The position numbers and the translations under genes are program-made. The notes beneath the pieces were generated by a model, which was not told the DNA's origin, ran no database searches, and saw only the letters and a list, made by a program, of their open reading frames with translations. A stretch of DNA of 64,000 bases from Chlamydiota bacterium (GTDB taxonomy: Bacteria; Chlamydiota; Chlamydiia; Chlamydiales; Criblamydiaceae), in contig JAYZJO010000065.1 of NCBI GenBank assembly GCA_036164375.1, forward strand, positions 3,810-67,809, read 5' to 3'. Below are positions 33,479-60,642 of the stretch, piece by piece. How positions within the stretch are numbered: the first letter of the stretch is position 1; each line of letters begins with the position of its first letter.

Positions 33479-34195
33479 CTATAAACTCCAGTCGATAGGT
33501 TCTTTATCCATCTGCTCGAGCAACGCGTTAATCTTGGAAAAATGTTGACAACCGAAAAATCCACGGTAGCAAGAGAGCGGCGAGGGGTGCGGGGCTGTTA
33601 GAATAGGATGTTTTTTGTTGCCGCCTTCGGCGTTCAAAATTTGACCGCATTTTTTTTGGGCATTGCTCCCCCACAACACAAAAATGACAGGATCTTCTCG
33701 CAAAGAAAGAGCCCGAACAATCGCATCCGTAAAGAGCTCCCACCCTTTGCCATGGTGCGCCATAGGACTCTTCTCTACGACCGTTAAAGTTGCATTTAAA
33801 AGAAGAACTCCCTGTTCCGCCCAAGGAATCAAACACCCATGGTTGGGGATCTCAAAACCGAAATCGTCGCTCATCTCTTTATAAATATTTCGCAGCGACG
33901 GAGGGATAGCTACCCCCTTATTTACACTGAAGCTAAGACCGTGAGCTTGACCAGGGCCATGGTAAGGGTCTTGCCCCATGATGACAACTTTCACACTGGG
34001 AAAGGGAGTTTTCCACAATGCTGTGAACATTTGTTCGCTAGGTGGATAAACAGGGACTCCAAGCGAGCGCTCTTGCTCAACAAAGCGAGCGAGCTCGCAA
34101 ATATATGGCTTTTCGAGCTCTCCTTTCAAAACCTGAGCCCAGCTCTCTTCAAAATTAAAGGGATATTTAACTTTTTTTTCTTGATTTATCATCAT
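33479..34195 (-). CDS. ung: Uracil-DNA glycosylase (family 1)
   Basis: 238 aa with GQDPYHGPGQAHGLSFSV, VLLLNATLTV and HPSPLS motifs. Confidence 0.9.
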   Translation of the reverse strand: MMINQEKKVKYPFNFEESWAQVLKGELEKPYICELARFVEQERSLGVPVYPPSEQMFTALWKTPFPSVKVVIMGQDPYHGPGQAHGLSFSVNKGVAIPPSLRNIYKEMSDDFGFEIPNHGCLIPWAEQGVLLLNATLTVVEKSPMAHHGKGWELFTDAIVRALSLREDPVIFVLWGSNAQKKCGQILNAEGGNKKHPILTAPHPSPLSCYRGFFGCQHFSKINALLEQMDKEPIDWSL

Positions 34196-34329: not shown

Positions 34330-34584
34330 ATGAAAAATATTTCTGAAAATAACCTGATCCGATTCAAAAATATTCAAAAAAAGAAAAACGGTGTCTTTGC
34401 CAACTTCCTTGTCACTGGTGTTCGTGGGGGAACGACAATTCGCGCGTCCATCGCCATTGACATCGCCGCTGCTGAAGTCGATCTCGCCGATCCAATGGAA
34501 AAAATCATCGAGGAATGTGCTCGCATTGCAGCAAAAGAAGTCAAAAGCACAAATTATGAATTCGAAGGGCTACAAGCTCTCTAA
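34330..34584 (+). CDS. Small hypothetical protein
   Basis: 84-aa ORF ending 12 nt before tRNA-Pro. No domain is recognised. Confidence 0.3.
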   Translation: MKNISENNLIRFKNIQKKKNGVFANFLVTGVRGGTTIRASIAIDIAAAEVDLADPMEKIIEECARIAAKEVKSTNYEFEGLQAL

Positions 34585-34596
34585 AAAATCTCATAT

Positions 34597-34671
34597 CTGG
34601 GTGTAGCGCAGCTTGGCCAGCGCACTTGCATGGGGTGCAAGGGGTCGGAGGTTCGAATCCTCTCACCCAGA
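34597..34671 (+). tRNA. tRNA-Pro (anticodon GGG)
   Basis: A manual cloverleaf fits. Acceptor is CTGGGTG/CACCCAG. D arm is GCGC-AGCTTGGCCA-GCGC. Anticodon arm is CTTGC-AT GGG GT-GCAAG. Variable loop is GGGTC. T arm is GGAGG-TTCGAAT-CCTCT. The discriminator is A and no CCA is encoded. Confidence 0.85.
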
Positions 34672-34761
34672 TATTTTTAACCAAACCACTTATTCTCATT
34701 TTTTTTTATTCTCTAAAGTATCTAGAACATAAACGTAATAAAAACACCAAAACGATTTTTT

Positions 34762-36159
34762 ATGACAAGCCCGAATGTAACAAATCGACCTCCAATAAAC
34801 ACATATACAAGCCAACACTTATCTTTAATTAAAAAAAACGATCCTGTTATTTTTTCTGAATTAAGGGGGATCGAATGGGTAAAAATATGTACTCAACAGT
34901 ACCCTGAAATTCTCTGGTTGGCTGATACCGAAGTACGCGAAACACAAGAGGGGCAAGCAACTGAAAACAGTCCTTACTCAGAACAACTTTTTCACAATAA
35001 ATTCATTGAATTCGACAGAACGATTATGACACTTCGCTGTTTGCAGTTGATCCTTGATGGAGGCGAAAATGCTTATCAAGAATTTACAGCCGCTCAACAA
35101 AGTGGGGTAAAACTATCAAGAACGAGCTTTGAAAGTCTACACGCACAAGGCACTTGTTTAATAAAGTCTAATTATATGGGCATGTCTGAACTAGAAATGA
35201 TTCAAGCCATGGAAGCTTCTCTTATACTTGGAGATATGGGCAAGAGCACCAAAGCAAGGGAAACCTTTAATTTTTATGGCGCTACAGCCCCTGATCACGA
35301 CGATTTTCATGAAGAAGCTATGAAAATTTTGGAAATCTACCCCAACCTTTGCCCCACATTTGATAAACTGACTCCATTAACTAAAAAGCTACTTACTCAA
35401 ACGGCAAACCTTGCTCACTATGGTCATGTGACACACCTTGAAGGTGGGCCCAACATGTTTTTTAAGCTGAAACAAAGTTCCTTTCTTTCTTCTTCTCCTA
35501 TAGCGTTCAGATTTGATTTTTTTGTACATACCTGTGATGTTGCTGGAGCTCTAGGGCATGTAAACAATCAATCTTCTTTAGTCTATACAGAGTCTTCTCA
35601 TCAAGCCATGCAAGCCGTTATGGCTGCGTGCAAGACTCTTGCTGATTCAGAAAAAACAGAAATCGACGCCTATAACACCTACTTAAAAATTAGAGCTGAC
35701 TTCCTTGGTCTCAATGATCAGATTAGAATTGATCGAGCCTTAACGCGCTTGGGAGCAATGCTTCGATTATTTACCCCTGAAGACGGCATGCTTTTAAAGA
35801 AGGCTGTTCTCGAACTGGACTCAAAAATACAAACCAATATATTCACGCAGTTAGACATAAAAGAAGATAACAAACTCGAACGTACACCAACATACATGCC
35901 TGCTGTTCTAGTGAACCTTTCTAACAACCTTGAACTAGGAGCTACCCGAGAGGATAGAATTTCTAAAGCTGTTATTTTAGGGCTTCCATTTCTTGCAAAA
36001 GTTTTAGAAAAACATAGGCAAACTATTTTCAAAAGCAAGATAACCCCAGACATCCCCTTGAACTTTAATCTTGCTGCAGGAGTCGCAAAAAATACACCTT
36101 ACGCCCTTCTTAATGAGTTTACTATTGATCAAGAGGGAAATGTGTGTATTAAAATATGA
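34762..36159 (+). CDS. Orphan hypothetical protein (465 aa) between tRNA-Pro and its partial copy
   Basis: It is a long clean ORF with no TM segments. His-rich local motifs occur (APDHDDFHEE, HYGHVTHLEGG, HTCDVAGALGHV). No family is recognised. Confidence 0.45.
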   Translation: MTSPNVTNRPPINTYTSQHLSLIKKNDPVIFSELRGIEWVKICTQQYPEILWLADTEVRETQEGQATENSPYSEQLFHNKFIEFDRTIMTLRCLQLILDGGENAYQEFTAAQQSGVKLSRTSFESLHAQGTCLIKSNYMGMSELEMIQAMEASLILGDMGKSTKARETFNFYGATAPDHDDFHEEAMKILEIYPNLCPTFDKLTPLTKKLLTQTANLAHYGHVTHLEGGPNMFFKLKQSSFLSSSPIAFRFDFFVHTCDVAGALGHVNNQSSLVYTESSHQAMQAVMAACKTLADSEKTEIDAYNTYLKIRADFLGLNDQIRIDRALTRLGAMLRLFTPEDGMLLKKAVLELDSKIQTNIFTQLDIKEDNKLERTPTYMPAVLVNLSNNLELGATREDRISKAVILGLPFLAKVLEKHRQTIFKSKITPDIPLNFNLAAGVAKNTPYALLNEFTIDQEGNVCIKI

Positions 36160-36290
36160 ATAACGACTCAGCCTAGCTGCTGAATAAGGCCATACAAACT
36201 TTCTCACATCAAAGTAAAACAACTAGGGCTAAGAATCAATAATATAAAACTCTATTTTAAGAAAAAACAAGGACATTTTTACCCCAAAAA

Positions 36291-36352
36291 AGCTAGCGTG
36301 GAGTGCAAGGGATCAAAAGCCCAAGCCCTCTCACCCAGATGTCTTTTTGACC
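36291..36352 (+). repeat. Degenerate direct copy of the 3' half of tRNA-Pro (anticodon arm to 3' end plus flank)
   Basis: The segment agctagcgtggaGTGCAAGGGaTCaaaagcccaagccCTCTCACCCAGATgtcTTTTTgACC is compared with tRNA 34625-34682, cttgcatgggGTGCAAGGGgTCggaggttcgaatcCTCTCACCCAGATatTTTTaACC. The blocks of 9 and 12 nt are identical. Confidence 0.6.
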
Positions 36353-36411
36353 TACAATACTACGATAAAAATTGCAGAAGGCCTGCGATCGCAGGCCTTA
36401 CTGAAAGCTGC

Positions 36412-38025
36412 TTATCTACTTTTTCCTACAGTAACGGTTGTTCCGTCAAACTTTGTGAGCGTGAACCCGTTAAATGCTTCGTTATATAGAAACCCCTCGT
36501 TGTTTAACACATCGATAGCTATCTGCTCACCAAGCAGCATGCCGTCTGATCCGTCGCAGCGATAGTGAACGCCTGCGTGATCCCTACCGAGGCAGATATT
36601 TGAAGCTAACTTGTTAAGCTCTCCACCGACTGTTAAATCTCCACCTGTGTAAGCTTCCAAAGAGGTATTGGTGACATCCGGCTGCAGAGGATTAGGAATC
36701 ACAAAGTCCTCGTTGAAAAAAGCTTTTAGCACGGTAACAGCAGCGCCAATCGCAACAGCGTGCCCTGCGGGATAAGAGGGGTGAGTTGGCGATCCCTCCG
36801 GGTAAGCTTGAGGAAGGAAATATGATCCATAAGTCGAAAAGATATTAGAAACGGCGGTAGAGCTTGTTAGCTCAGAAGAAATGCCCAGACTTTCGCCGTC
36901 AGCAATTTGCTTTTGGACATAAAATCCATATTCTTCGGGACGCAACCTACGGTTTACTTGCCACTTGTGATACCAAGCCCCCTTTAACCCTTCGTTTACA
37001 GCTTTTGCAAGCACATCAAAAAATTGATCTGTTCCAAAGGTCACAAACCCCTGCTGAGTTGGATTGTTTAAATAGGGGTTGTTTGGGTCTAAGGCATCAT
37101 TACCATAGGAGAGAAGTTGAAGAAGAGCGTTTACAGCTCCCTGACCTGGATAGTCTCGATGCACCCAAGCCGCTAAATCCCTCGCAGTGCGAAGAAACCT
37201 GGCCACCGGATCTACCGTGGTAGATTTTCCAGTTGAGCCCCCACTAACCACCTCAAACCAGTCCGTAAATGTCGTCATGAAATCATTTGTTGTTCCTTGT
37301 GTGGGAACAGAGATCTCGGGAGCAACAGTAGCTGGACCGTAAGGAACCGTTTGGTATAAAAACTGAGAAATATAGGGGCCAACCAAGTCACCTGGAGTCA
37401 ATCCCCTTAAAAAGGTTCCACGTGTGACCACTCCCCCCACTTTGGGTCCTCTAAAATCAGAAAGCGTGTTTAGCTCCGCAACAGCGCTTCCGACAATCGC
37501 GTTGGCGTCGTACTCATTAAAGGGCACGTCGCGGGCAAGCGCAGTCCAATAAAGCTCAACCATTTCACCGGCAGCTTGTGCCGAAGAAAACTTGGGAGCT
37601 GGGGGAATAGCATTAATCCAAGAATCGTTTCCCGAAAGAGAAAAAGCTAAACTCGCCTGTGGATTTACAAGCTTCCTTACTGTAGAACCCATGAGGATTT
37701 TATCAAAGTCGGAAGGTTTTCCTGAAAGCAAGGCAAAAACCAGCTGGTTAAATGCTACGGTATCAATAAACCCATTGGACTTATGTAGTAAAGATTTTCC
37801 AAAACTCCCGCGCTTATCGGCATATAAAGCTTCGTCACCGTTTTGTGTTTGATTTGGAAGTTTTGTTTTCTGATCAAAGCGTGCAACAGCTGTTTTTACT
37901 GCATGCGAGTCCACCTGCCTTTGGGAGCGGATCAACTTAAAAAAAGCTTTATCACTTATAGCTTCACTCTGATAAGGATTAAGCAGGCATACGCCCATTG
38001 CTAAGGCTACGATATAATGTTTCAT
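36412..38025 (-). CDS. PAP2-superfamily vanadium-dependent haloperoxidase-like protein, secreted
   Basis: It carries the signature PTHPSYPAGHAVAIGAAVTVLKAFF plus LGRDHAGVHYRCDGSDGMLLGEQIA (acid phosphatase/vanadium haloperoxidase active-site motifs). The signal peptide is MKHYIVALAMGVCLLNPYQSEA. I chose the start at the second Met, because the track start 38049 overlaps the upstream gene. Confidence 0.65.
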   Translation of the reverse strand: MKHYIVALAMGVCLLNPYQSEAISDKAFFKLIRSQRQVDSHAVKTAVARFDQKTKLPNQTQNGDEALYADKRGSFGKSLLHKSNGFIDTVAFNQLVFALLSGKPSDFDKILMGSTVRKLVNPQASLAFSLSGNDSWINAIPPAPKFSSAQAAGEMVELYWTALARDVPFNEYDANAIVGSAVAELNTLSDFRGPKVGGVVTRGTFLRGLTPGDLVGPYISQFLYQTVPYGPATVAPEISVPTQGTTNDFMTTFTDWFEVVSGGSTGKSTTVDPVARFLRTARDLAAWVHRDYPGQGAVNALLQLLSYGNDALDPNNPYLNNPTQQGFVTFGTDQFFDVLAKAVNEGLKGAWYHKWQVNRRLRPEEYGFYVQKQIADGESLGISSELTSSTAVSNIFSTYGSYFLPQAYPEGSPTHPSYPAGHAVAIGAAVTVLKAFFNEDFVIPNPLQPDVTNTSLEAYTGGDLTVGGELNKLASNICLGRDHAGVHYRCDGSDGMLLGEQIAIDVLNNEGFLYNEAFNGFTLTKFDGTTVTVGKSR

Positions 38026-38038
38026 TGATTGATTTCTC

Positions 38039-38803
38039 CTAATACACAAAGCTTGCTAAAATTTGAAGTCCGACACTCCAGTGAGAATACTGGGGTATAT
38101 TCACTGGTACACCTAGAGAATTTGTATCGCTCCCTCTTCCAAAAACATTAATTTCATAAAAAGGGTTAATATGTAACCGCACAGCTTTTTGACAAACCGG
38201 CACACAAATTTCGTTTAACAGCTCGGCTCTAAAAGCGTATTTAGACTTGATGTTGACGCCCGTTGAGTTGACGTCTAAGCAAGAGTAAACATCCGGTTTA
38301 ACTTCCAGCTGGAGCCCATATCTGTATCGAGGACCGTAGGTGTTTTTAACAATAACCCCTACAGGTACAAAGACCTTCTTATATTTATATTTCAAATTAG
38401 CAAGCCCCGGACTTTGCTTGTCTTCAAAATATTGACCTCCGACCCCAACATAGGGGATAACCTCTTGTAAACAACACAAGCTACCGCGTGAGTTGTTCTC
38501 AAAAGCGTAGCCTACTTTCCAATCGAGCGTATAATCGGAAAGCGAGCTTTCTCGACAGGTAGAACCTGTTATTGAAGTAATATTCCACGCTCCGGAAAAC
38601 CGAACGTCGGTGTATATACACCTTTTTGAATAAGACGCGCCAGCGACAACTCCCCCCATAAAGCCATCTAAACTTGAGGAGCCGCTCTCTCGAGTCGACG
38701 TATAATAAAACTGGGGACCTATATAAGGTTCTATCGATGAGTAAACATCCGATCCGACTAGCACACATATATAGGACAATAAACACAAAATTTTCTTAAA
38801 CAT
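38039..38803 (-). CDS. Small Cys-containing outer-membrane beta-barrel protein
   Basis: 254 aa with a signal peptide (MFKKILCLLSYICVLVGSDVYS), alternating strand pattern, about 10 Cys and a C-terminal aromatic (..ASFVY). Confidence 0.45.
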   Translation of the reverse strand: MFKKILCLLSYICVLVGSDVYSSIEPYIGPQFYYTSTRESGSSSLDGFMGGVVAGASYSKRCIYTDVRFSGAWNITSITGSTCRESSLSDYTLDWKVGYAFENNSRGSLCCLQEVIPYVGVGGQYFEDKQSPGLANLKYKYKKVFVPVGVIVKNTYGPRYRYGLQLEVKPDVYSCLDVNSTGVNIKSKYAFRAELLNEICVPVCQKAVRLHINPFYEINVFGRGSDTNSLGVPVNIPQYSHWSVGLQILASFVY

Positions 38804-39003
38804 CTTTACACCTACCTAAAAAAAACACTTTAACAAAGTGCAAACCTAAATTTCAAAAAAAAAACACTTTTGTATAAATATTTTAGATAAAACCAGATTT
38901 CACCAAAGATCTCACACGCGAAAAAAGTAAAAAAGTTCGGCAAAAAACGGCTACACTATAAAAGCAGACTTGCGTTGATTATAACCCGTTCACCGACGCT
39001 ATT

Positions 39004-39195
39004 TTTTTTGTCGACAAAGACCCACATTTCGTTCATATGTTCAAAAGTCGCAACTTACCAACAACCCTTCAACAAATTATAAACATCACAATCTCTCAGG
39101 TAAAACCCCGCACTTATAAACATTTCCACACCGCCTTATAAAGAAGAGATATTATATACATACTTTATAGTACTCTTAATGGGCAGTGGAAAGTT
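39004..39195. repeat. Intergenic modular repeat, copy 1
   Basis: It contains the perfect palindrome TTTGTCGACAAA (39006-39017), CATTTCCACA (39120-39129), taaagaagag, an AT-rich spacer, and inverted CAGTGGAAAG (39183-39192). Confidence 0.7.
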
Positions 39196-39234
39196 TAACA
39201 AACAAGCTCTAATCTGAAAATCTAAAAATGTTGA

Positions 39235-39462
39235 AAGTTTGTCGACACTCCTAGGGATGCAATGTTCATAAAAATAGACGACAACATTGTTAATAACTCA
39301 AACTCGTCGATAACCCCTCACTTACAAACAGCCCGTTAACAAAAGATACACAACCATTTCCCCTTGGGTTTCCCTAGAAGGCTATCGACATTTCCACAGC
39401 GCCCTAAGAGTAGGAAGTAAAATATACTTATTATTTATTTCTAATAGAAAGGTGTTGAAAAT
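39235..39462. repeat. Intergenic modular repeat, copy 2 (more diverged)
   Basis: It contains TTTGTCGACA (39237-39246), CATTTCCACA (39388-39397), ctaagagtaggaag, an AT-rich spacer and gtgttgaaaa (39451-39460). Confidence 0.6.
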
Positions 39463-39513
39463 ATCTACTTTCCTAGAGACACTTGGCTGTAACAGATTTA
39501 GATAGGAGATCTC

Positions 39514-40146
39514 ATGTCCGCACTACACCCCAATAATTTTTTTGCATTAGAACATTACGACCATGCCGAACTGTTCAAAGATTGTGAATATGTATGGCAA
39601 GCCCTTCCTAAAATCGAAACTTATCTACAGTCTCACGACTTTCATATCGATATTGAAATTCCCAACGGCGTACACTTAAAAAATAAACACCAAATCACCA
39701 TCGGCAAAGGAACCGTTCTTGAGCCGGGCGCTTATATCGTAGGCCCTTGCATCATCGGTAAAAACTGCGAAATTCGCAAAAATGCCTACATCCGAGGGAA
39801 ATTTATTTGTGGAGACGGGTGTGTTGTTGGTTGTGAGGTCAAAGGGGCCATCTTCCTCAACGAAGCCAAAGCTGCCCACTACAACTACATCGGCGATTCT
39901 ATTCTCGGTAATAAAGTCAACCTCGGAGCGGGAACCAAGACGGCAAACTTGCGCTTCGATAAAAGGCCTGTACGGGTTCGTTGCGGCGATGGGTATGTCG
40001 ACACAGAGCTCAAGAAGTTTGGAGCCATTTTCGGCGATCTCTCGCAGTCTGGATGCAATTCAGTGACGAATCCGGGAACCCTCTTGGCAAAGGGCGCCAC
40101 AATTTTATCTTGCGCCAGTGCAAATGGATTCATTGACGCTCAGTAA
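39514..40146 (+). CDS. Left-handed beta-helix (hexapeptide-repeat) transferase-like protein
   Basis: 210 aa. It has a run of hexapeptide units (IGKGTVLEPGAYIVGPCIIGKNCEIRKNAYIRG...IGDSILGNKVNLGAGT), resembling the LbH domains of GlmU and sugar-nucleotidyltransferases. Confidence 0.6.
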   Translation: MSALHPNNFFALEHYDHAELFKDCEYVWQALPKIETYLQSHDFHIDIEIPNGVHLKNKHQITIGKGTVLEPGAYIVGPCIIGKNCEIRKNAYIRGKFICGDGCVVGCEVKGAIFLNEAKAAHYNYIGDSILGNKVNLGAGTKTANLRFDKRPVRVRCGDGYVDTELKKFGAIFGDLSQSGCNSVTNPGTLLAKGATILSCASANGFIDAQ

Positions 40147-58818: not shown

Positions 58819-60642
58819 ATGTGGAAGTATCCTGAAATATACGATGTTATCGTTATGGGTGGTGGACACGCTGGATGTGAAGCAGCTTTAGCAGCTGCGC
58901 GCATGGGCGTACGTACCCTCTTGCTCACGATGAACCTCGATACAATTGCTAAAATGAGCTGTAATCCCGCTGTCGGCGGTATCGGTAAAGGCCATATGGT
59001 TAGAGAAATCGATGCTATCGGCGGTGAAATGGCTAAAGTAATCGATTGTACAGGAATCCAATACCGCATGCTCAATGCTACCAAGGGGCCAGCTGTTTGG
59101 GCACCACGTGCCCAAGCAGACAAAGTTGCTTATCAATTTGAGATGAAAAGCAGGCTCGAACGCACCCCAAACCTCGAAATCAAACAAGGTACTATCGAAG
59201 ACCTTATCGTCGAAGAGGGAAGCATCAAGGGAGTCATCACAAAAGAGGGAATTATCTACAGCTGCAAAACGCTGATTATTTCATCGGGAACTTTCATGCG
59301 CGGCCTTCTTCATATTGGAGAGCAAAATTATTCGGGCGGTAGGGCTGGCGATCAGCCTGCTGTTGGAATTTCTGGTTCTCTAGAGAGGTTAGGTTTTAAG
59401 CTTGGACGCCTTAAAACAGGAACTCCAGCGCGTATTCATGCTCGCTCCATCGATTTCAGTTTATGTGAAGAACAACCCGGTGATGAAGGCGTGCGATTTT
59501 CTTTTGATTCAGAAGAGAGCAAGCGTTTAAAGCAGGTTTCTTGTTACATCACGTACACGACACAAGAAACGAAAGAAGTCATTCTCAAAAATCTCCACCG
59601 GTCCCCCATGTATTCGGGGACTATCGAAAGCGTTGGTCCAAGGTACTGTCCGTCGATTGAAGATAAAGTCGTGCGCTTTGCCGATAAAGAGCGTCATCAG
59701 ATTTTTTTAGAGCCAGAAGGCCTTAATACAGAAGAGGTCTATGCGAACGGAATCTCATCTTCGCTCCCTCTAGATGTGCAGTATGATTTCATGAGAAGTA
59801 TTCCTGCGTTGAGAAATGCTGAAATCATGCGTCCCGCTTATGCAATTGAGTACGACTATGTCGAGAGCGGCCAATTCAAGCCCTCATTAGAGACAAAGCT
59901 CGTGGAAGGACTGTTTCTTGCTGGACAGATTAATGGAACCACTGGATATGAAGAAGCGGCTGCTCAAGGGCTTATGGCAGGTATTAATGCGGTAAAAAAA
60001 GTCAGAGGGGAAGAAGCTTTTATTCTAAAACGTTCTGAAGCTTATATTGGAGTCATGATTGACGACTTGGTGACCAAAGGTTTGACAGAGCCTTATCGCA
60101 TGTTTACAAGTCGCGCTGAACATCGCCTCCTTCTTCGTCAAGACAATGCAGACTTGCGTTTGCGTCGCTATGGTTACGAGCTTGGACTCATCGACGAGGA
60201 ACGGTATCAAAAGCTTCTTAAGAAAGAAGAAGCTCTCGAGACTGAAGGGAAGCGGTTAGCTAAAATTTATAAGCAAATGAACGGCAAAGGGTTTTCCCTA
60301 GCGCAGATCCTCAGTCGACCGGAAACAACCTATTGTCAGCTTTTGGAACTTTATCCTGGTGACGTGGTCGATTATGGAGAGGATATCAATTTTCAAATAG
60401 AGCTTAATCTGAAGTATGCAGGATACATCCAAAGGCAGAATGCAGAAATTGAAAAACTGTCGAACATGGAAAATATGAAGATTCCTGACTGGTTTGATTT
60501 TTCTAATGTAAAGGGCCTTCGCAACGAAGCAAAAGAGAAGCTTTCTCATCATGGACCTAAAAATTTAGGTCAAGCCTCTCGAATTTCAGGAGTATCGCCC
60601 GCCGATGTCTCTGTTCTAATGATTGCTTTAAACAGCCGATAG
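58819..60642 (+). CDS. mnmG: tRNA uridine-5-carboxymethylaminomethyl synthesis enzyme MnmG (GidA)
   Basis: 607 aa. Motifs are [73 protein letters not shown] and [14 protein letters not shown]. Confidence 0.95.

Follow-up and report, generated by a model that had tools for sequence, protein, structure and literature searches.

A decayed half-copy of tRNA-Pro beyond a native DUF6829 gene in a Chlamydiota contig: a possible attachment-site scar

Duplicated tRNA 3′ ends are the textbook footprint of integration at tRNA genes, and a locus that carries such a duplication raises the question of whether the DNA between the two copies is foreign. This question is posed by a stretch of 64,000 nucleotides (nt) from a marine Chlamydiota bacterium of the Criblamydiaceae (assembly GCA_036164375.1, contig JAYZJO010000065.1, positions 3,810 to 67,809; the whole stretch is called the window below), in which an intact tRNA-Pro(GGG) gene is followed by a single protein-coding gene and by a decayed copy of the tRNA 3′ half. 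An earlier reading, made from the letters without database searches (the sequence-only reading), had proposed an old, eroded islet whose one orphan gene was retained cargo. The comparison of related loci suggests another arrangement, in which the half-copy would be an attachment-type (att-type) scar and the gene between it and the tRNA is native, an explanation that we regard as evenly poised between right and wrong. The loci compared, designated by L numbers, comprise 61 from species genomes and 14 from metagenomes, together with several contigs obtained by exact protein look-up. The features involved are the following:

34596..34672, plus strand: intact tRNA-Pro(GGG) gene (ARAGORN; Rfam tRNA, 57 bits, E=9e-11).
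34625..34684, plus strand: first copy of the repeated segment, which begins with the anticodon stem and continues about 12 nt past the tRNA 3′ end (direct-repeat family D1; att hidden Markov model (HMM), E=2e-19).
34762..36159, plus strand: DUF6829 gene, 465 amino acids (aa), without the N-terminal signal peptide and Shine-Dalgarno sequence of its relatives (Pfam PF20717, E=4e-37; homologues 55-82% identical).
36160..36292, no strand assigned: spacer of 133 nt that separates the tRNA half-copy from the stop codon of DUF6829, with no similarity to the start of the HAD gene found beside DUF6829 in relatives, to the P arm of the relatives' elements or to any fetched locus.
36293..36352, plus strand: decayed half-copy of tRNA-Pro that extends from the anticodon arm through the 3′ end into a short stretch of flank (40 of 54 positions; att HMM, E=1e-13; left boundary as in the attR of L002, L003, L064 and L065).

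The repeat scan returned a direct repeat of 54 nt in the same orientation, at 34625-34678 and 36293-36346, with 74% identity and a distance of 1668 nt. Its tRNA portion (36293-36340) corresponds to the last 48 bases of tRNA-Pro(GGG), which is the single tRNA found by ARAGORN in the window. When both strands were scanned without gaps, the half-copy matched at 40 of 54 positions and the second-best place in the window at 29, while 200 first-order Markov windows reached a maximum of 33, with a mean of 28.7. In addition, an HMM of the clade's tRNA-Pro 3′ halves found the half-copy with E=1e-13 (nhmmer). It could be argued that the tRNA similarity is a chance match, as the similarity of the flanks is not significant by itself; this explanation is effectively refuted by the shuffle control and the HMM search, and the shared orientation, the location 1.7 kb from the tRNA and the pattern of transitions also speak against it, so that its probability is negligible.

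The direct repeat put forward by the sequence-only reading is thus confirmed, with a similarity at 36291-36352 that is far above chance in shuffled sequence, and its details were correctly described: GTGCAAGGG and CTCTCACCCAGAT are the same in both tRNA copies and the T-arm is scrambled. The retained flank that it also reported (TTTTT-ACC) is in register in both copies, yet this agreement is not significant alone (p=0.43). The left edge of the half-copy is sharp and coincides with the first base of the anticodon stem. As 13 of the 14 mismatches in the 54-nt alignment are transitions, the differences fit the mutational decay of what would be a true copy.

The 465-aa protein had been described as belonging to no recognisable family, which is wrong: residues 57-422 match Pfam DUF6829 (PF20717, model positions 20-378 of 408) with 128.3 bits, well above the gathering cut-off of 27 and over most of the model (E=4e-37). 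A search of 5.8 billion proteins gave 357 matches, and the matches listed, 57-82% identical, come nearly all from Chlamydiota assemblies or from metagenome-assembled genomes that are probably mislabelled chlamydiae. Judged from these matches, DUF6829 is a phylum-wide chlamydial family. In a tree of 70 sequences, the window protein is sister to that of L071 inside a clade of ten sequences (support 100/98), eight of which are linked to tRNA-Pro; among the loci compared, this linkage is limited to the window's own clade.

The order of the genes to the left of the tRNA provides two anchors for the comparison:

33479..34195, minus strand: UDG-family gene (Pfam UDG, E=7.5e-17), with orthologues 5′ of tRNA-Pro in L001 and L046.
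34330..34584, plus strand: 84-aa gene immediately 5′ of the tRNA, a position that its homologues (46-58% identical) also occupy in L001, L002, L046 and L071.

The order UDG, 84-aa gene, tRNA-Pro, DUF6829 is shared by L001, L046 and L071 and, partly, by L002. In L001 and L071, DUF6829 directly follows tRNA-Pro and there is no tRNA copy downstream of the gene. The gene is, consequently, ancestral and syntenic without a downstream repeat in related genomes, which is the very outcome that the sequence-only reading had named as fatal to its claim. Furthermore, when the window, L001, L002 and L046 are compared in pairs, DUF6829 (72-78% identity) varies in step with the flanking 84-aa gene (46-65%) and UDG gene (55-59%), which argues that the locus has been inherited vertically since the lineages split. 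The composition check recommended by the earlier reading gave an ordinary result, with a G+C content at third codon positions (GC3) of 0.32 for the gene (z=-0.74 against the range of the window), and foreign composition of DUF6829 is therefore rejected. With synteny in relatives, ordinary GC3 and flank-like divergence, the enclosed DNA does not have the foreign character of a tRNA island. Taken by position and descent, the gene that ancestrally stands to the right of tRNA-Pro in the window's clade is DUF6829, native and not imported cargo. Of the eroded-islet model, what stands is a genuine att-like repeat; what falls is the single orphan gene as cargo, as that gene is a conserved and syntenic DUF6829.

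The same comparison shows what sets this locus apart. In the relatives with a tRNA copy, the copy lies upstream of DUF6829; a half-copy downstream of the gene is peculiar to the window. Close relatives all carry a typical signal peptide on DUF6829 (e.g., KKLRIFLMIGSLLATPFGMDA) after a GGTGG ribosome-binding site, and the protein is predicted to be secreted in them. The window protein, unlike these, begins with 17 unrelated, non-hydrophobic residues, and homology starts near residue 14-18; the signal peptide present in all close relatives is missing. DUF6829 also forms an overlapping gene pair with a HAD hydrolase, a predicted phosphatase conserved with it, in L001, L002, L003, L005, L012, L042, L050, L062, L077 and L084, and remnants of the HAD gene persist in L008, L065 and L071, but no remnant of it was found in the window. 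The loss of both signal peptide and HAD gene in the window alone would mark local remodelling. Instability 3′ of DUF6829 is also seen in other relatives, with HAD truncated in L063, L065 and L071.

These losses are also what an importation would predict. According to this alternative, the 1.67-kb segment is a true eroded islet, in which an imported DUF6829 has replaced a lost native copy; in one variant, the gene of a related chlamydia was captured by imprecise excision (specialised transduction or a cis-mobilisable element) and integrated at tRNA-Pro. The geometry is exactly that of a left att copy, cargo and a right att copy, and both the novel N-terminus and the missing HAD partner are as expected of a captured gene fragment. 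Moreover, the left arm of the L002 islet, with about 75 nt of chlamydial DNA from downstream of tRNA-Pro, shows that elements take up flanking DNA, and the DUF6829 homologue in the Burkholderiaceae (L056) shows that the family can move. However, the gene lies in its ancestral place beside the tRNA, as in L001 and L071, its identities are in line with those of the 84-aa and UDG genes beside it, its composition is ordinary and its place in the tree is within the tRNA-linked clade, where L071 is its sister. Importation would additionally need an earlier loss of the native DUF6829 from the same spot, and we consider it unlikely.

Several islets are found at this tRNA in relatives. In L002, a copy of the tRNA 3′ half matching at 53 of 54 positions is found 4 kb past the tRNA, immediately before DUF6829, and the islet carries an AbiEi/AbiEii pair and small open reading frames (ORFs) with no integrase. 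Decayed tRNA copies are also found directly upstream of DUF6829 in L064, after a type I restriction-modification (R-M) island, and upstream of the gene in L065, while the contigs of L062 and L063 begin inside a tRNA half-copy just upstream of it. In L003, where a tRNA copy again lies upstream of DUF6829, the island on its left encodes a tyrosine integrase of 433 aa with the domains Arm-DNA-bind_3, Phage_int_M and Phage_integrase (P4-type), whose gene is 1.4 kb from the half-copy. L046 has a methyltransferase and a broken aminopeptidase between tRNA-Pro and DUF6829, and the right end of its islet, including the tRNA half-copy, seems to have been deleted.

The half-copies of L002, L003, L064, L065 and the window share their start base (CTTGC, the 5′ strand of the anticodon stem), which follows an A-run, and the approximately 105 nt to the left of the copies (the P arm) are homologous among L002, L003, L064 and L065. 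Past the tRNA copy of L064, the sequence continues into the flank that follows the intact tRNA in L001. In L002, L003, L064 and L065, DUF6829 lies outside the islets, to the right of attR. The islets and the shared copy boundary in relatives lead us to regard the interval between tRNA-Pro and DUF6829 as an integration hotspot for one element family. Judged by sequence comparison, tRNA-Pro is a proven landing site for islets in relatives, and DUF6829 forms the conserved right-hand flank that belongs to the host.

Some features of these islets deserve a description of their own. They span L002:1807-5890, L064:1-7940, L003:1-5620 and L046:3869-6000, and they share a conserved right arm of 105 nt and a repeated TGTGGCAGGTA-type motif. 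By contrast, their cargo varies (AbiEi/AbiEii; type I R-M with a Bro-N gene; methyltransferase), with the integrase kept only in L003. The left arm of the L002 islet (L002:1884-1960, compared with L062:47-120) has about 75 nt, including a terminator hairpin, that are closer to the native downstream region of tRNA-Pro in L062 than to the right flank of L002 itself; it seems that this element took up DNA from the flank of a host. In L046 (5011-6873), a truncated prolyl-aminopeptidase-like frame runs without a stop into DUF6829, forming a fusion ORF of 620 aa.

The boundary that the window copy has in common with the copies of its relatives favours an integrase origin for it, and the explanation that we prefer is a scar around a native gene. 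A Campbell-type integration at tRNA-Pro(GGG) in the window's own lineage would have produced the att copy at 36293-36340, which later decayed. The driving enzyme would have been of the kind that presumably moves the relatives' islets, a P4-type tyrosine integrase with an identity block that begins with the anticodon stem. DUF6829 would not have been brought by this integration but enclosed through secondary remodelling of the locus, either because the element moved past the gene by excision and re-integration via the repeated tRNA segment or through a transient duplication of DUF6829 followed by deletions, which appear to be the likeliest routes. This remodelling, or events soon after it, would have removed the 5′ end of DUF6829 with its signal peptide, the overlapping HAD gene and all element genes. 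We infer the integrase origin of the window copy and the order of these rearrangements; the comparisons themselves show that the repeat exists, that the tRNA is a landing site and that the gene is native.

The age of the copy can be placed relative to the divergence of the lineages. The half-copy bears tRNA states that are specific to the window (GCAAGGG, CACCCAGAT), unlike those of its sister L071. These states, and a divergence of about 25% against flanking proteins that are 46-59% identical, indicate that it arose after the lineages split. The split is deep enough to saturate neutral sites, and, since a neutral relic of 54 nt is only 26% diverged, the half-copy should be much younger.

Several observations weigh against the scar. 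Plain integration cannot place a native downstream gene between att copies, and a further rearrangement is consequently required. The decay of the half-copy is uneven, with 10 of the 14 changes in the T-arm. The P-arm HMM matches L002, L003, L064, L065 and L072 (E between 1e-19 and 1e-25) but not positions 36190-36292 of the window, where only a 6-nt A-run aligns between the spacer and the relatives' P arm; because no P arm is detectable, only the boundary and the A-run tie the half-copy to the relatives' element family. The TGTGGCAGGTAA arm motif, which is present in L003 and L046 in this form and in L002 as a variant, has no better-than-chance match near the tRNA or the half-copy of the window, and over the window as a whole it occurs no more often than expected by chance. 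Additionally, tblastn with the L003 integrase and other islet proteins gave nothing below E=0.1 in the 64 kb; the earlier statement that no integrase is present holds on this search with a relative's integrase. No joined (excised) form was found in the contigs of three sequencing runs.

Three candidates for further traces of the element were discarded. The sole match of the P-arm HMM in the window (60542-60590, E=0.015) lies inside a coding region with no att sequence beside it. The nine matches of a P-arm 17-mer in viral contigs are all due to chance, with no P arm or att. Finally, a contig break at 34625 in a Logan assembly of this organism, considered as a second junction, is due to tRNA k-mers common to other organisms of the seawater sample.

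The lack of arms, integrase and arm motif near the half-copy is what would be expected if no mobile element had been involved at all. In such a case, slippage or unequal exchange would have duplicated in tandem the unit formed by the tRNA 3′ half and DUF6829, and the second unit would have been deleted save for the 50-60 nt at its beginning. Duplications do occur readily at this locus, as indicated by one of 112 nt in L071 and a smaller one in L001, both at the 5′ end of the gene. Nevertheless, the left edge of the half-copy equals the attR edge to the base in four relatives, after an A-run, a coincidence of about 1-2%; there is no trace of a second DUF6829 copy in the window; and the 133-nt spacer has no match at the locus, nor did it or its flanks give anything significant against the HAD start, all the loci compared or other parts of the window. 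A tandem duplication is, in our opinion, improbable.

A different explanation places the insertion to the right of DUF6829, where the following features are found:

36374..36399, no strand assigned: G+C-rich hairpin, likely a terminator, between the convergent DUF6829 and haloperoxidase-like genes (minus-strand terminator-like site; dominant stem in the RNA fold of 36280-36415).
36412..38049, minus strand: vanadium-haloperoxidase-like (PAP2 superfamily) gene (homologues with PF22778/PF01569; up to 67% identity in chlamydiae).
38039..38803, minus strand: small beta-barrel gene resembling those of outer-membrane proteins (OMP), in an operon with the haloperoxidase-like gene (weak OMP_b-brl match; a gene of 246-251 aa precedes the haloperoxidase-like gene in L067-L070).

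The half-copy would then be the left junction of DNA lying to its right: an element with a tRNA-Pro-like att site would have integrated at a secondary site just after DUF6829 and destroyed HAD, and the OMP and haloperoxidase-like genes would be its cargo or what replaced it. The half-copy does stand at a break of synteny, with DUF6829 followed by HAD in relatives and, here, by the copy and the haloperoxidase-like gene. Additionally, the contexts of the OMP-haloperoxidase-like pair differ between genomes, and in L069 the pair lies near AbiEi and HTH_17 genes. On the other hand, an intact primary site is available only 1.6 kb away, the DNA to the right lacks a second junction, a P′ arm motif and element genes, no att-like sequence lies by the haloperoxidase-like gene in relatives, and both genes are ordinary in composition. 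An insertion from the right is quite improbable on these grounds.

The sequence-only reading had also taken these right-flank genes for accessory ones, and their contexts do vary. They are a conserved pair in other chlamydiae, with 60-67% identity and ordinary composition, and neither tRNA-Pro nor an att-like sequence was found near the haloperoxidase-like gene in L067-L070, nor tRNA-Leu repeats in L069. The pair is, as far as these comparisons go, relocatable but not demonstrably foreign.

Having returned to the scar around a native gene as the preferred explanation, we may compare it with known systems. P4-type (Arm-DNA-bind_3 or DUF4102-type) tyrosine integrases target tRNA genes. The L003 integrase has this architecture, and the half-copy near it has the boundary of the window copy, whereas no such gene or remnant lies within the window. 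In islands made at tRNA genes by tyrosine integrases, as in the window, the 3′ part of the tRNA is repeated in the same orientation; the identity block of the window has its beginning at the anticodon stem, a trait shared with the relatives' islets, among which an integrase and defence cargo are found at this very tRNA. By contrast, the window encloses a native conserved gene in 1.67 kb, without integrase or arms, and its repeat has decayed to 74%. Such islands are known among environmental chlamydiae, where Protochlamydia amoebophila UWE25 offers one of 100 kb beside tandem tRNA-Gly genes, with direct repeats of 17 bp (PMC548262).

Two properties of tRNA islands are found here, namely the direct repeat of the tRNA 3′ end and a boundary shared with bona fide islands at tRNA-Pro. 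Two others are absent: the repeats have no integrase gene or remnant within or next to them, and the DNA between them is not foreign, which is why we speak of a scar and not of an islet. The 105-nt P arm and the TGTGGCAGGTAA-type motif that characterise the relatives' islet family are likewise lacking in the window.

Among integrase-less elements, cis-mobilisable elements (CIMEs) are att-flanked deletion derivatives of integrative elements, described for the ICESt1/ICESt3 family of Streptococcus thermophilus. Similarly, two att-type copies in the window bound a short segment in which there is no recombinase gene, and the 4-kb AbiE islet of L002, with its repeats matching at 53 of 54 positions and no integrase, fits the description well. 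The second copy of the window is, unlike those of CIMEs, degenerate (26% diverged, with the T-arm scrambled), and its content is a chromosomal core gene. Mobilisation of the window segment seems unlikely.

The scar itself is ordinary in kind, although its geometry is unusual, and it holds a warning for automated island callers: a tRNA-derived repeat pair may enclose a native core gene, so that att-like repeats alone are no proof of foreign DNA. The wider interest would lie in one tRNA-Pro gene that small defence islets, most of them lacking an integrase, share as a landing site still in use throughout a clade of uncultured chlamydiae, a group in which mobile DNA is thought to be scarce and for which we know of no genetic tools. 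It is conceivable, but very doubtful, that this is a clade-wide landing pad for one defence-islet family with a P4-type integrase in environmental and marine chlamydiae, which enclosed a native core gene between att sites and so made it mobilisable in trans; if true, this would be a route for the exchange of core genes between obligate intracellular bacteria.

A by-product of the analysis is the description of DUF6829 as a phylum-wide chlamydial protein with a conserved HAD phosphatase partner and a confident, all-helical model that has no relative in PDB. The AlphaFold model (pLDDT 83.5, pTM 0.84) gave no Foldseek match to a PDB fold below E=0.4, and the sequence gave no PDB match below E=0.06 and no match in NCBIfam; a literature search on DUF6829 returned no paper mentioning the family and no function. 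About 130 columns are invariant in 20 diverse sequences, including PDHDDFH, HYGHxTHLEGG and FVHTCDVAGALGH, and these His/Asp motifs suggest a metal-dependent hydrolase. As the overlapping DUF6829-HAD pair is found in distant chlamydiae and one protein is a fusion of both, the association is old. In L064 (9434-10393), an alpha/beta hydrolase replaces HAD and keeps its overlapping start and N-terminal hydrophobic segment, which looks like a domain replacement behind a retained signal sequence.

Of 133 columns that are highly conserved in the family, the window protein departs from the consensus at 2, in which it resembles its relatives, and long-standing pseudogene decay is rejected because these columns are intact. 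The gene is, nonetheless, polymorphic in the organism:

35650..35652, plus strand: codon that is GAA (E297) in the window and TAA in another assembly of the organism (L066, with T at 35650).

This second assembly is 99.989% identical to the window, and its called DUF6829 product has 296 aa. At codon 297, a contig from seawater run X1 carries the T (nonsense) allele, the consensus of that run, and one from run X2 the G (intact) allele. The lost signal peptide and a nonsense allele seen in one sample would suggest a recent relaxation of DUF6829.

Some minor observations concern the gene elsewhere. In L071 (500-700), the 112-nt tandem duplication covers the start codon and the signal-peptide region of DUF6829, and in L001 the smaller duplication, of GGTGGTGGAT, occupies the same place. 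The homologue in Trinickia sp. (Burkholderiaceae, L056, 6001-7248) has 39% identity and sits on a long chlamydial branch of the tree, a position consistent with a possible transfer out of Chlamydiota.

Lastly, the cumulative GC skew of the window has its minimum near 39.3-39.6 kb (38804-39600), being negative to the left and positive to the right. The repeat-rich spacer that lies about 3 kb to the right of the half-copy may, judging from this, be related to a replication origin rather than to an island. With an origin in the spacer, most genes between 26.8 and 36.2 kb would be head-on to replication.

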